A stretch of 21,961 nucleotides of DNA from Desulfurococcaceae archaeon (GCA_038888155.1 JAWAJB010000011.1:1-21961); one strand, 5' to 3'. Shown: positions 127-21,961, counted from the first letter of the stretch. Notes: generated from the letters alone by a model not told the origin. A program made the numbers and translations.

Positions 127-471
127 TTTTCAACTCATTCTTTATTGATACTTGTTAACTAGGTCTTCAAGGCTACTCTCAGGGCCCTCATCTTTCAATT
201 CATTCTTTATTGATACTTATCCCTGCTTCGCTAGTGATGGTGGCTTCAGCGTTACTTTCAATTCATTCTTTATTAATACAAAAGGGCGGTGCAGAGTTTC
301 ATTGACTTGATGTATGATGCTTTCAATTCATTCTTTATTGATACGCTAACTTCTTCTACAGCTTTGTCAATATCAAACCTCAAGCCTTTCAATTCATTCT
401 TTATTGATACGCTTTAACCTTTACCCATTCTCCCTTATTCAGATAACTTTCAATTCATTCTTTATTGATAC
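127..471 (-). CRISPR. CRISPR array 1: 6 repeats, 5 spacers (36-41 nt); repeat CTTTCAATTCATTCTTTATTGATAC on plus, GTATCAATAAAGAATGAATTGAAAG on minus
   Basis: Repeats start at 127 (degenerate, TTTTCAACTC...), 192, 255 (one G>A change), 320, 386 and 447. Orientation is minus because the degenerate copy is at the left, the conserved leader is at the right, and the minus-strand repeat ends in the canonical ATTGAAAG tag. Confidence 0.97.
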
Positions 472-593
472 CGAGGTCTCATGGGAGCCTTCCTCGGCCC
501 CTCCTCTATTTTTTCTCCTCCCCTGCGTATTTAACTGTTGCGCTATTGAGGAGTGGCTCGATGGTCCTGGGCCGCCCAACAGCCACTCCTCAA
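472..593 (-). promoter_or_regulatory. CRISPR leader 1 with TATA-like box (minus TTAAATA, 528-534) and a 13-bp inverted repeat (546-558 / 581-593)
   Basis: Homologous to the sequences right of arrays 2 and 3 (CGAGGTCTCATGGGA...CTGCGTATTTAACTGTTGCGCTATTGAGGAGTG...CACTCCTCAAA). Confidence 0.88.
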
Positions 594-10766: not shown

Positions 10767-11562
10767 CTTTCAATTCATTCTTTATTGATACAGGAAAAAA
10801 GGTCTGCAAGAGATGTGGAGAATAGAAACAGTCTTTCAATTCATTCTTTATTGATACTTAAGTTTTGCATAGGGGACGATCACAGGAGAATAACGCACTT
10901 TCAATTCATTCTTTATTGATACACGGATTAACGCTTGTTCTAGTATTGGGAAAAGAGTATCTTTCAATTCATTCTTTATTGATACAAGTGTAAATCCAGA
11001 GTTCGACAATTGCAGAGTTACGTATCTTTCAATTCATTCTTTATTGATACGTGTGGGAGTGTGGTGGGAGAAGGGAGAGAGAGGGCTTTCAATTCATTCT
11101 TTATTGATACAACAGCGAGAGTAACGCTTAAAGCCAAGTTGACGACGAGCTTTCAATTCATTCTTTATTGATACCCTTTTTAAGTCCTTGGTTCTAATTT
11201 TTAATGGCATTCCCTTTCAATTCATTCTTTATTGATACAACCAAAAATATAATGCTCCCGCCCCTTGGCTCTTCGCCATCTTTCAATTCATTCTTTATTG
11301 ATACTTTATTGATGTAGTGAATTTCTTTAAGACTCTTAAGGAAACTTTCAATTCATTCTTTATTGATACGAGCATGTAGTCCCCCGTTGGATGAACCGTG
11401 AAGACCCAGCTTTCAATTCATTCTTTATTGATACGCTCGTCCCTCAATATCTTCTTGAAGCTATTGCTCTTTGCTTTCAATTCATTCTTTATTGATACGA
11501 AGCCTGCTTTAACGAGTTTTTTTGCTAGTGGCTTTGGCTTTCAATTCATTCTTTATTGATAC
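10767..11562 (-). CRISPR. CRISPR array 2: 13 identical C-type repeats, 12 spacers (35-41 nt)
   Basis: Repeats at 10767, 10833, 10898, 10961, 11026, 11086, 11150, 11214, 11280, 11345, 11410, 11474 and 11538; leader at the right. Confidence 0.98.
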
Positions 11563-11713
11563 CGAGGTCTCATGGGATAGTTCCTCGGCTCCTTCCCCTA
11601 TTTTTTCTCTTCCTCTGCGTATTTAACTGTTGCGCTATTGAGGAGTGAAGGTTGGGCAGCACAGAATCATCGAGTCACTCCTCAAAGTATTAAAACTTTC
11701 TTTTGGTTTATTT
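11563..11713 (-). promoter_or_regulatory. CRISPR leader 2 (TATA-like 11620-11626; inverted repeat 11638-11648 / 11675-11685)
   Basis: 146/151 identical to 21493-21643 and homologous to leader 1. Confidence 0.9.
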
Positions 11714-12620: not shown

Positions 12621-13262
12621 TTAAGCTATTAAAGATGAAGCCTTTATCTTCGTTATCCTCAGCAATATTTTGCCTGTAAGTGTGAGCTCAAAGATCTTTT
12701 TATCCTCGTTCTTGTGCACCAAGCCTTTTTTCATTAAATTTTTAAGCAACCTGCTAGCCGTTGATTTACTTACTCCTAGCTTCCTTGATAGCTCGGTAAC
12801 TCTGCAAGGCAACGCTTCCAGCGCTTCTCTCTGTCTATCAGTCAGAACACTAGCAGGCATAGCTAGCGTCGGCATTTCGACTCTCTCCCCCAGAGTCTCG
12901 GTAGTCATGTAAACCTTTCTAACACCCGAGAAGCAAGCTGCTAAAAAAAGCGATAGAGAAATCCCCTTGGGTCCACCGGTAATATCAATTATAGGTTCAT
13001 CGCTATTTGAAATAATAATTGACAACTTAGCAACGTTGTTCTCTAGATCTGCTTCATTAAGCCTTAAAACCTCTATACCAATGCCCGGGTTTACGGCTCG
13101 AACGAAGTCAACTATACTCTTTATGGCATTCTCTGTTTTTGGATGGCTAACCGCTGAGGTCACCAAATATATCCTGTCATTTATGCTAAGCCCCTTTTCA
13201 CCGACAAGTCTAATTAAAGAGGACTGATCAAAACCCAGCGAAGCAATGAACGTTTTAGGCAA
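12621..13262 (-). CDS. csa3: Csa3 CARF-wHTH transcriptional regulator, 213 aa
   Basis: CARF motifs FIASLGFD...IR and IDITGGPK; C-terminal wHTH LTDRQ.EALE...ELSRKLGVSKSTASRLLKNLMKKGLV...FELTLTG; divergent from the I-A operon. Confidence 0.92.
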   Translation of the reverse strand: MPKTFIASLGFDQSSLIRLVGEKGLSINDRIYLVTSAVSHPKTENAIKSIVDFVRAVNPGIGIEVLRLNEADLENNVAKLSIIISNSDEPIIDITGGPKGISLSLFLAACFSGVRKVYMTTETLGERVEMPTLAMPASVLTDRQREALEALPCRVTELSRKLGVSKSTASRLLKNLMKKGLVHKNEDKKIFELTLTGKILLRITKIKASSLIA

Positions 13263-19259: not shown

Positions 19260-21492
19260 ATCTCAATTCATTATTTATTGATACCGAAATAGCGGATATG
19301 CCTTATCATCAAATTTATTGGTCACTTTCAATTCATTCTTTATTGATACAGTAATGAGCGAGTTTGCTGATGTACTGGAAGACTACATACTTTCAATTCA
19401 TTCTTTATTGATACACGGTAAGCTGGCTAAGGCGCCGAGGAGCTACGGGCTGAACGCTTTCAATTCATTCTTTATTGATACAGAATGTACTTCTTGAGCA
19501 GAGCTATGATGGAGCCATACTCCTCTTTCAATTCATTCTTTATTGATACATCTTCGGGACTAACCTCTTCGTCCTTTATGCCTGTGTTCCCTTTCAATTC
19601 ATTCTTTATTGATACTTTAAAGTTTGGGATAAAGGAATCACAAAAACGCTAAGTGCTTTCAATTCATTCTTTATTGATACTTATTTACTTGTGGTGTGAA
19701 TGAAGCTTAAAGACGACCCTCTTTCAATTCATTCTTTATTGATACTTGCCCTGGATTTACGTTTACGAAATACGCTTTTCCTTCTTTCAATTCATTCTTT
19801 ATTGATACGCCTTTAGCTTGAGCAGAGTAATAGCGAGGCAGATAAACTTTCAATTCATTCTTTATTGATACAATAGTGAGACCCCCAAACCAACCGCGAT
19901 GGAGAAAGCTATGCTTTCAATTCATTCTTTATTGATACATATATTTCTTAGTGATAAGCATTGATAATAACCCTTAGCAAATCTTTCAATTCATTCTTTA
20001 TTGATACCTTAGCTCCCCTCCCTCAAGATACCTCGCCCCCCTCCTACTTTCAATTCATTCTTTATTGATACTTTAAACAATATTACCGTGATGGTATTCC
20101 TCAACTGGCTAGTTTCAATTCATTCTTTATTGATACGCTGGGCGTTTGTCAAAATCTATGAGAACTATATTGGTTTCAATTCATTCTTTATTGATACACT
20201 TCTGGGACTCTCCTCTTGGGAGAGAGGTTTACAGGTTTCAATTCATTCTTTATTGATACCCCATCATCATCGAAGAATTTTTTGATTTCATTGATGTGTT
20301 TCAATTCATTCTTTATTGATACATGTACAGGCTCTGGTTGGGAGCAATGGTCACCGATCCCGGTTTCAATTCATTCTTTATTGATACCCAATCCAGCCAC
20401 AGACACAGCCACAGCCATCAGTGTTTCAATTCATTCTTTATTGATACATAAGGGTAACGAGGAATAACGATAACTATACATATACCGTGTTTCAATTCAT
20501 TCTTTATTGATACGCTTATCAAGAGATTCGTGAATACGGCTTCGGCTTCGGTCTGGTTTCAATTCATTCTTTATTGATACCTAGCCTGGGGGCTGGTAGA
20601 GAGCCAAATGCTTCGCGTTTCAATTCATTCTTTATTGATACTTAAACGTAATCGTCTCTAAACTCATAAGTAATCACCTGAGGTTTCAATTCATTCTTTA
20701 TTGATACGAAGCTTCAGCAACAACAGTTGAGGTATTCGCCACAGTGTTTCAATTCATTCTTTATTGATACGAGACGTCTTTGCGGGGGTGATCCTTCGCT
20801 AGGAAGCCGAGTTTCAATTCATTCTTTATTGATACAAGAGAGTACCTAGGGAAGGTAATAGTGATAGCAGACGCAGTTTCAATTCATTCTTTATTGATAC
20901 ATCACCTCGTGCTTCTCGCTCGACGTGAAGCATTTGTGTTTCAATTCATTCTTTATTGATACAAAGCAAGGGAACAACCATATACGTTCCCTATGAGCTA
21001 AGTTTCAATTCATTCTTTATTGATACCCAGATGAAGTCAACAGCTTGATTACAAGTGTAGGTAAACTGAGTTTCAATTCATTCTTTATTGATACTAGTCC
21101 ATAACTCTCTCCACACACCTTTTATCCTTCTTGCATGTTTCAATTCATTCTTTATTGATACACGCAATGAACATTTTGGAGCACGACGAGAGAGCAGAGG
21201 TAGTTTCAATTCATTCTTTATTGATACTACGGAGCCACCCAGTAGGTGGGAGTACATGGCTCGGGTCGGTTTCAATTCATTCTTTATTGATACTTCATCC
21301 TGAAACAGGATTAAAAATCAAAACCAAAAATTTGGTTTCAATTCATTCTTTATTGATACTTGTTGCCCGGGGCATCCTCTACAAAGTGGTTGGGTGGGTC
21401 TTGTTTCAATTCATTCTTTATTGATACCTGGCTCTGGGCGGGGATCCACTTCACTCCATACCTTCCAGTTTCAATTCATTCTTTATTGATAC
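19260..21492 (-). CRISPR. CRISPR array 3: 35 repeats, 34 spacers (35-44 nt); 1 degenerate, 12 C-type and 22 G-type repeats
   Basis: Degenerate terminal repeat ATCTCAATTCATTATTTATTGATAC at 19260; CTTTCAAT-type repeats starting at 19325 through 20047; GTTTCAAT-type repeats starting at 20112 through 21468; leader at the right. Confidence 0.98.
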
Positions 21493-21643
21493 CGAGGTCT
21501 CATGGGATAGTTCCTCGGCTCCTTCCCCTATTTTTTCTCTTCCTCTGCGTATTTAACTGTTGCGCTATTGAGGAGTGATTGTTGAGCAGCCCGGAATCAT
21601 CGAGTCACTCCTCAAAGTATTAAAACTTTCTTTTGGTTTATTT
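21493..21643 (-). promoter_or_regulatory. CRISPR leader 3 (TATA-like 21550-21556; inverted repeat 21568-21578 / 21605-21615)
   Basis: Near-identical to leader 2. Confidence 0.9.
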
Positions 21644-21685: not shown

Positions 21686-21961
21686 TTGAGTTACGTTGCT
21701 CTTGTTATTTATGACATTAAAGACAACAGGCTTCGATTCGAGATTGCTAATTTTCTCAGACAAGTTGGGCTAAGCCGGATACAAAAAAGCGCATTTGCTG
21801 GCCCTATTAAGCCATCGCTTAGATCAGAAATAGAGGCTGGAATTAGGAGAATAGTGAAGGAGTGGGATAACTATAACATTCAGGTCTACGTCATGACAAG
21901 CGCTACTTACTCGAATAGGACTGTTATTTCATCTGGCTATATTATTGAGGATGACGATAAG
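21686..21961 (+). CDS. cas2: Cas2, 3'-truncated by the window edge and absent from the ORF track
   Basis: Manual translation from TTG 21686 (AGGTG RBS at 21674-21678) gives MSYVALVIYDIKDNRLRFEIANFLRQVGLSRIQKSAFAGPI..., with the hallmark YDI.D.R and GL.RIQKSAF.G motifs. No stop codon in 92 codons. Confidence 0.93.
   Translation, partial: MSYVALVIYDIKDNRLRFEIANFLRQVGLSRIQKSAFAGPIKPSLRSEIEAGIRRIVKEWDNYNIQVYVMTSATYSNRTVISSGYIIEDDDK

Follow-up and report, generated by a model that had tools for sequence, protein, structure and literature searches.

Introduction

In the leaders of bacterial type I-F CRISPR systems, two inverted repeats flank the distal IHF site, and, through the U-turn imposed by IHF, these repeats are reported to meet the Cas2 dimer as symmetric pillars, each bound by one of its equivalent faces (bioRxiv 10.1101/2023.05.26.542337). 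Inverted motif pairs have also been reported in leaders of Pyrococcus furiosus and of bacteria (PMC13748974). In the Sulfolobales, type I-A leaders carry in their distal part the CAPPa/Csa3a motif, a CRISPR-specific palindrome located about 12 bp upstream of the BRE/TATA elements in loci that contain csa3, and the available accounts link it to array transcription and adaptation (PMC5587795, PMC8699464, PMC4333418, PMC9456107). The Csa3b operators RI and RII (TTTTCN8GAAAA) are described as palindromic sites upstream of the type I-A interference promoter, where csa3 is a neighbouring gene (PMC5389559). Integration in the type I-A system of S. solfataricus is reported to require host factors (PMC5815122).

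Here we describe an inverted repeat of 48 bp in the three CRISPR leaders of a 21,961-nucleotide stretch of DNA from a Desulfurococcaceae archaeon (GCA_038888155.1 JAWAJB010000011.1:1-21961), hereafter the window. The initial annotation of this DNA, made from the sequence alone, could name no described element that matched it. In fact, none with this sequence or geometry came to light, but the type I-F pair and CAPPa are close functional analogues. In a limited literature search we found no published description of the element or of the leaders of its lineage; a large survey of leader motifs was reportedly carried out by Santiago-Frangos and colleagues in 2021. We propose that the element is probably the landing site of a symmetric protein that guides either spacer uptake or array transcription.

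Results

An inverted repeat of fixed span in three CRISPR leaders

The three CRISPR arrays of the window are all on the minus strand, so oriented that each leader lies to the right in window coordinates (Table 1), and their repeat, read on the minus strand, is GTATCAATAAAGAATGAATTGAAAG. Between the arrays there is a type III module, with Cas10, RAMPs, Csx1 and an APE2256-family CARF protein, and a type I-A-like module, with Cas6, Csa3, Cas7/Csa2, Cas5, the Cas3' helicase and an HD nuclease. The genes adjacent to the leaders in the window (APE2256, Cas6 and Cas2) are in all three cases transcribed away from the leader. Csa3-family genes number four in the assembly, and the source organisms come from hot-spring samples.

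Table 1. Coordinates of the CRISPR arrays, leader modules, inverted-repeat elements and related genes in the window.
Feature	Position	Strand	Remarks
CRISPR array 1	127-471	-	6 repeats
CRISPR array 2	10767-11562	-	13 repeats
CRISPR array 3	19260-21492	-	35 repeats
Leader 1, conserved module	472-593	-	First repeat to distal arm
Leader 2, conserved module	11563-11685	-	
Leader 3, conserved module	21493-21615	-	
TATA-like box, leader 1	528-534	-	TTAAATA on the minus strand (TATTTAA on the plus strand); putative promoter element
TATA-like box, leaders 2 and 3	11620-11626; 21550-21556		Same box as in leader 1
Leader 1 element	546-593		9-bp arms 546-554 and 585-593; inner 30 bp 555-584
Leader 2 element	11638-11685		Arms 11638-11646 and 11677-11685
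Leader 3 element	21568-21615		Arms 21568-21576 and 21607-21615
csa3	12621-13262	-	CARF and winged helix-turn-helix regulator; PF22662 (1.6e-16) and HTH families
cas2	21686-21961	+	Cut by contig end; divergent from leader 3; component of the candidate integrase; PF09827 (2.7e-12)

All three leaders contain TTGAGGAGTG-N28-CACTCCTCAA with a span of 48 bp, and both the sequence and the coordinates of the three sites agree with those annotated initially, as does the identical span. When the pattern was relaxed to TTGAGGAGTG-N{20,30}-CACTCCTCAA, the window still gave only these three matches, against 0.00 expected from 100 shuffles, and no other site was found in the whole 2.42-Mb assembly. The perfectly complementary arms are 13 nt long in leader 1, around N22, and 11 nt long in leaders 2 and 3, around N26, just as first described. 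Since the repeat ends at base 471, the element occupies positions -75 to -122 of leader 1. Its location upstream of the minus-strand TATA-like box was also correctly recognized, and the gap, first given as about 12 bp, is exactly 11 bp from the TATTTAA box to the proximal arm.

The conserved part of the element consists of two inverted 9-bp half-sites, TTGAGGAGT and ACTCCTCAA, with the cores GGAGT and ACTCC; they are separated by 30 bp, which places their centres 39 bp apart. Six matches to the half-site with at most one mismatch occur in the window and all of them are leader arms, while the ten exact matches elsewhere in the genome are apparently in coding regions, as judged by eye. The covariation first proposed for the inner arm pair, i.e., the 11th position (G:C or A:T), holds within the window; however, 7 of the 14 homologous leaders lack a pair here, and the metagenome copy L043a has A.C.

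A different, leader-proximal inverted repeat, CCGAGG-N15-CCTCGG (471-497, 11562-11588 and 21492-21518), begins at the last base of the first repeat and recalls the Cas1-bound leader stem-loop of S. islandicus. It was dropped as a general leader feature, as L045b, G242 and G246 show direct repeats at that place.

The assembly that contains the window (G000) measures 2.42 Mb with 6.4% contamination, and the genomes of its genus 0.9-1.5 Mb. The leader family occurs otherwise mostly in family f3; mis-binning of the window's contig (C11) or a transfer of the CRISPR module may be involved. Two more arrays of the same assembly, on contigs C15 and C21, belong to another repeat family, GAATCTCA[T/A]AAAGAGAATTGAAAG; their leaders are unrelated and lack the 48-bp element, and that of C21 has a strong hairpin right at the first repeat (a 13-nt stem with one mismatch and a 4-nt loop).

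Homologous leaders in metagenomes and related genomes

A BLAST search with the leader against 60 relatives, and then against 325 genomes of the order, gave no homolog, the weak matches being coding DNA. BLAST evidently lacked the sensitivity needed, as homologs within the same order were afterwards recovered with covariance models. A scan of metagenomes with a 21-mer that adjoins the element on its outside yielded four contigs with six leaders, namely L043a, L043b, L044 (cut by a contig end), L045a, L045b and L046. One leader was obtained from genome G211 by a search for the fixed-spacing pattern, and covariance models built from the leaders added two from G246, five from G242, one from G144 and two from G245. 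Altogether, 19 complete copies of the element were collected from the window, the metagenome contigs and five other archaeal genomes. The covariance models permit insertions and deletions and did recover leaders with 15-nt and 17-nt deletions, so that other spacings were within their reach. Among the matches listed for the full element with at most one mismatch, only the three leaders of the window's own genome and the G211 leader are present.

With the models, applied to part of the first-look candidates, no leader homolog was found in 29 genomes of family f2, in 41 sampled genomes of f13, the family with the largest genomes, or in 67 of f9; families f5 and f7, like the order's small families, were covered by BLAST and the fixed pattern. 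By these searches the leader family is narrow, comprising four genomes of family f3 plus G144 and the window's assembly in f1. Arrays with related repeats in G006, G038 and G049 have unrelated leaders.

Several candidates were set aside during these searches. Twenty-five records with exact arms and gaps of 18-38, from bacteria and one Nitrosopumilaceae MAG, were taken as chance occurrences, with spans between 38 and 55 and none of 48. A model match of 24 bits with shorter spacing (L098:1501-1643) was considered spurious, as it is inside an ORF of 228 amino acids and has no adjoining repeat. The full-element pattern with three mismatches was noise, its match count being equal to that of the reversed control. 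The contig that carries L044 ends inside the element (L044:6633-6655); its terminal sequence resembles a sequencing adaptor, and we take this contig end to be probably an artefact.

The gene beyond the distal arm varies from copy to copy. It encodes Cas2 at leader 3, L045b and G246a; Cas6 at leader 2, L043a and two G242 leaders; and the APE2256 CARF protein at leader 1 and L046. Elsewhere we found a peptidase M24 gene (G211), a convergent tRNA synthetase gene (G242_C65), a convergent csa3 (G246b) and a convergent ORF without assignment (L045a). As the neighbouring genes differ, the element belongs to the leader; in addition, homology between leader classes stops 0-28 bp past the distal arm. 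The element is the distal boundary of a leader module of about 123 bp, and not part of the neighbouring promoter. A leader of about 400 bp is reported to be needed in S. solfataricus (PMC13748974), compared with the only ~123 bp conserved here.

Some of the loci have peculiar arrangements. On an 84-kb metagenome contig an ORF on the array strand stops (TAG) 1 nt before the distal arm (L045:8416-8475), and two arrays with leaders of different age are face to face on the same contig across about 3 kb that hold cas2 and cas4. In L082/L097 (G242 contig C62), cas6 is flanked on both sides by leaders of this family; the leader downstream of cas6 is a remnant, has two degenerate repeats and abuts a long array of an unrelated 30-nt repeat.

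Spacing, position and pairing of the arms are conserved

The core GGAGT-N30-ACTCC, with letter variants in some lineages, was found in 17 of the 19 complete copies, which represent the window lineage, G211, G246, G242 and G144. The variants are GGAAT/ATTCC in G246, GAAGT on one side in G144 and GGAGG in L043b. The 30-bp spacing is present in all 12 leaders followed by arrays of at least four repeats and in all three leaders whose arrays are cut by contig ends. Only two copies have N29, both in G245 and both in orphan leaders with 0-1 repeat, one of which also lacks the TATA region. The element decays once the array is gone, and its spacing is lost only in orphan leaders.

Position is conserved as well. 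A MAFFT alignment of 14 leaders, made without leader 1 (flipped), L045a (a duplicate of leader 3), L044 (cut), and the later found G144 and G245, contains no gap between the TATA-like box and the distal arm. In 16 of 17 copies, 74-76 nt separate the repeat from the start of the element, although the DNA of this interval has a mean identity of only about 67%; the one outlier is a remnant that shows, besides its truncated repeat, a deletion of 15 nt. No indel separates the TATA-like box from the proximal arm in 18 of 19 copies, and an A/T-rich box occurs at the same place in all lineages.

Regarding the pairing of the arms, 117 of the 126 cells in the nine conserved pairs of the 14 aligned leaders are complementary (93%). 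When 14 pairs were considered, 76.5% of the cells were paired, against 37-50% with the partner slid by one to three columns. Compensatory changes were observed at four arm positions: in G242 T:A became A:T and G:C became T:A, and in G246 A:T became T:A and G:C became A:T. These approximately four covariation events in two lineages, independent of the window, offer modest support, as the copies stem from about five lineages and independent events are few. Judging from the excess of paired cells over the slid control and from the compensatory changes, the symmetry appears to be under selection. It had been proposed initially that selection keeps the symmetry and the length but not the loop, and an alignment of related leaders had been suggested as a test of covariation; the alignment bears the proposal out, since arms and span are kept while the inner sequences of different lineages cannot be aligned.

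The inner segment is hypervariable and was inverted in leader 1

The loop of leader 1, regarded at first as strongly diverged, is instead inverted: 20 of 28 positions are identical to leaders 2 and 3 after reverse complementation, against 5-6 of 28 in direct orientation, and none of 100,000 shuffles reached an inverted identity of 20/28. The comparison of its inner 30 nt with seven close copies gave 22-26 identities inverted and 7-12 direct. These copies include L046, the positional ortholog of leader 1 beside the same APE2256 gene, and the nearest inner sequence (26/30) is that of the un-flipped copy L043b. Thus, only one of the eight close copies, leader 1 itself, is flipped. Contigs from three DNA runs of three hot-spring studies, one of which may be the window's own source, all have the orientation of the window with no differences over 526-800 or 546-694, which indicates that the flipped state is not an assembly slip. 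Neither a second orientation nor a strand-changing joint was seen in the contigs of these three runs, in which rare variants are hidden. In our reading the inversion arose incidentally, when the arms recombined or served in template switching, and a symmetric site tolerates it. Small hairpin-loop inversions between short inverted repeats are described for chloroplast non-coding DNA. They share with leader 1 an inner segment exactly reverse-complemented between intact arms; however, they explain the flip only and not the conservation of the element. Array 1, which follows the flipped element, has 6 repeats and the orthologous L046 array at least 32, an observation that we mention as an anecdote.

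The inner segment also changes rapidly. Between leaders 2 and 3, five differences fall within the 30 inner positions and none within the other 121 positions shared in leader, arms and flank (Fisher p = 2e-4), and hence the initial remark that all five differences are in the loop was accurate. In turn, leader 1 and L046 differ, after flipping, at 8 of 30 inner positions, against 12 of 275 positions when the leader is taken together with 200 nt of its flank (p = 2e-4). The inner 30 bp change at least six-fold faster than the flanks, while the arms and the length remain constant. Between lineages the inner identity is 3-11 of 30, i.e., at chance level, except for G211, G144 and G242 among themselves; a first impression of conserved blocks inside the loop was overturned by the identity matrix. 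A raised mutation rate of the loop, cassette-like exchange between paralogous leaders or diversifying selection may account for this hypervariability. Leader L043a (L043:9014-9155, minus strand) is in fact a mosaic, with its repeat-proximal 50 nt of the leader 1/L046 type and its inner segment and distal flank of the leader 2 type, which points to recombination between paralogous leaders.

Comparison with described elements

With the type I-F pair, exemplified by IR_proximal and IR_distal of Pseudomonas aeruginosa, the element shares two inverted leader motifs that precede the first repeat, a spacer whose size (30 bp here) would suit a bound protein and two-fold symmetric recognition, and a presumed need confined to leaders. 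In contrast to that bacterial system, which uses a Cas2/3 fusion and IHF, and hence a Cas1-Cas2/3 integrase, the locus described here is archaeal and I-A-like, with separate cas2, cas3' and cas3'' genes; moreover, its arms keep a specific core and its spacer shows no bender motif conserved between lineages.

The likeness to CAPPa lies in the CRISPR-specific symmetry, the distal leader position, the csa3 gene in the locus, and the placement upstream of the promoter elements, at 11 bp here. However, CAPPa is described as TCCCN8GGGA, a site of about 18 bp for one winged-helix dimer (PMC5587795, PMC8699464, PMC4333418, PMC9456107), whereas our element has 9-bp arms 30 bp apart. TCCCN8GGGA has two one-mismatch matches in the window (2170 and 2996) against 5.7 expected, both in genes and none in a leader. 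As for the csa3a gene and the acquisition-cassette promoter with which CAPPa is associated, Csa3-family genes, which may be of type a or b, are present here, and the elements of leader 3, L045b and G246a adjoin cas2, other copies being beside unrelated genes. The Csa3b operators differ in sequence, size and place, as they are reported at the interference cas promoter and not in the leader (PMC5389559), and the three matches to TTTTCN8GAAAA in the window (8636, 13634 and 16109; 2.1 expected) are all inside ORFs. Because defining features of both the type I-F pair and CAPPa were looked for and found wanting in this locus, we did not file the element as a member of either.

Discussion

What the data ask for is a two-fold symmetric reader of duplex DNA that touches two 9-bp sites with centres 39 bp apart and is indifferent to the sequence between them. 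Among the mechanisms listed in the initial annotation, a protein site on duplex DNA fits best, while the RNA hairpin and the cruciform found no support. We tentatively favour a docking site on duplex DNA for a two-fold symmetric complex, and in particular for the Cas1-Cas2 integrase on a folded leader, while conceding that this identification is less than an even bet. Two half-sites at an exact spacing of 30 bp, with a spacer free of sequence requirements, would suit docking by a two-fold symmetric assembly, and equivalent surfaces of the Cas1-Cas2 integrase would contact the half-sites. The 30-bp spacer might be forced into a U-turn by an architectural host protein, as IHF does in type I-F leaders, or else the leader DNA might lie flat along the integrase; either arrangement would present the first repeat, 74-76 bp off, for spacer integration. 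The bending factor of such a U-turn is hypothetical, and these archaea are not known to have IHF. A Cas1-Cas2 ruler in the style of E. coli would hold a duplex of the spacer length minus 10; the modal spacer length here is 40, and the coincidence of N30 with 40 minus 10 is a numerical hint only. A bolder version, which we consider unlikely, would make the element the landing pad of a type I-A-like integrase in archaea without IHF or histones: the arms would be read by the two-fold symmetric Cas1-Cas2, N30 would correspond to its own duplex ruler, and the leader would either mimic a bound prespacer or hold a U-turn by means of a crenarchaeal architectural protein, the missing host factor of type I-A. 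If that were true, the hypervariable and inverted inner 30 bp would be scars of integrase or hairpin activity.

Several observations speak against docking of the integrase. The inner 30 bp contain no motif shared between lineages that would mark a sequence-specific bender, and in type I-F systems Cas2 is reported to read the repeats mainly by shape (bioRxiv 10.1101/2023.05.26.542337), whereas the kept GGAGT core looks more like base-specific recognition by a transcription factor. The short conserved leader, of about 123 bp against the approximately 400 bp reported for S. solfataricus (PMC13748974), also counts against it. Furthermore, a distance of 11 bp from a TATA-like box is the classical location of an archaeal activator site. 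The main rival reading, which stays strong and which we rate only a little lower than docking, takes the element as an upstream regulatory site of the pre-crRNA promoter, where a transcription factor on both half-sites would activate or repress the array and, where present, the divergent cas gene. Csa3, perhaps responsive to cA4 from the neighbouring type III module, is the obvious candidate, with a csa3 gene in the window, four paralogs in the assembly and one csa3 abutting a G246 leader. The proximal arm keeps its 11 bp to the conserved TATA-like box without indels in 18 of 19 copies, and its core is sequence-specific. The Sulfolobales offer a precedent: both the leaders and the acquisition promoter are described as having the CAPPa palindrome 12 bp upstream of BRE/TATA (PMC8699464), Csa3a of S. 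islandicus, whose type I-A system is the nearest one studied, is reported to bind a leader-distal motif at -130 to -103 and to activate the array (PMC5587795), and mutation of this distal motif is reported to lower adaptation (PMC9456107). However, centres 39 bp apart are unlike the known Csa3 sites, whose half-sites of 4-5 bp are 8 bp apart; TCCCN8GGGA and TTTTCN8GAAAA are absent, with up to one mismatch, from the leaders and from the csa3-cas intergenic region; and other cas promoters showed no half-site, all six matches in the window being leader arms. A promoter site would also leave the conserved distance to the repeat unexplained, and it is for this reason that we favour integrase docking over a regulator, as a scaffold needs this distance and a promoter does not. 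The two readings are not mutually exclusive; in S. islandicus the leader-distal motif is reported to affect both array transcription and adaptation (PMC9456107, PMC5587795).

That the arms pair within a strand, during replication, integration or transcription-driven supercoiling, and that the resulting hairpin or cruciform is recognized as a structure, for instance by Cas1, seems improbable to us. The arms are complementary and covary, single strands fold to -7.9 to -16.0 kcal/mol (37°C, DNA parameters), the one inner inversion requires at least one event of pairing or recombination between the arms, the hypervariability of the inner segment is what an exposed loop might show, and S. islandicus Cas1 is reported to bind stem-loop ssDNA non-specifically (PMC9456107). 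Nevertheless, a 9-bp stem with a 30-nt loop is a poor cruciform that would not need the strict N30, a specific arm core is kept and not just any complementary sequence, the covariation is equally expected for a palindromic protein site, and short stems are weak in hot-spring organisms (-3.5 to -9.9 kcal/mol with RNA parameters at 80°C). A hairpin in a transcript that crosses the element, serving as terminator, processing site or stabilizer, has still less to recommend it and we give it almost no credit: although the RNA stem is stable (-14.3 to -26.8 kcal/mol at 37°C) and genes on the array strand terminate, at some loci, 1-10 nt short of the element, the position upstream of the conserved TATA-like box puts the element outside the predicted pre-crRNA. 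Rfam gave no matches at gathering score in the whole window, neither strand has a consistent T-run after the element, the mismatches lack strand bias (two G.T and three A.C on the plus strand, the latter being G.T on the minus strand), and the strict N30 is again unexplained. A programmed switch, in which the inner 28-30 bp would flip between two orientations and thereby change leader function, is just as hard to credit. It would agree with the orientation of leader 1, opposite to that of L046 and six other close copies, and with the repeat number of its array, 6 against at least 32 in the ortholog; however, only one of eight close copies is flipped, a Pfam scan of 17 window ORFs revealed no recombinase, and the segment is far shorter than known invertible elements. 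The single orientation in the contigs of the three runs also counts against a switch, weakly so as contigs drop rare variants. Finally, the palindrome could have no function of its own and be kept by hitch-hiking with the leader together with hairpin-templated repair or gene conversion between the arms, which we hold to be very improbable. Template switching can perfect arms without selection, and leaders do recombine, as the mosaic L043a testifies; on the other hand, arms and N30 persist, with compensatory changes, in leaders otherwise about 67% identical, they remain unchanged beside an inner segment that evolves at least six-fold faster than the flanks, and the spacing is lost only in orphan leaders.

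For bacteria with IHF, and lately also for the histone-bearing Pyrococcus, it is understood how CRISPR integrases find the leader-proximal repeat; this leader family would allow the question of the host factor and the leader signals to be put to the test in crenarchaeal type I-A-like systems. Its module of about 123 bp is compact and contains a single, clearly delimited symmetric element, whose arms, spacing and orientation can be mutated cleanly. Should the element be the site of a regulator, CRISPR-associated regulators would gain a new operator geometry. In any case, paired inverted repeats separated by a fixed spacer occur in archaeal leaders too, besides those of bacterial type I-F systems.
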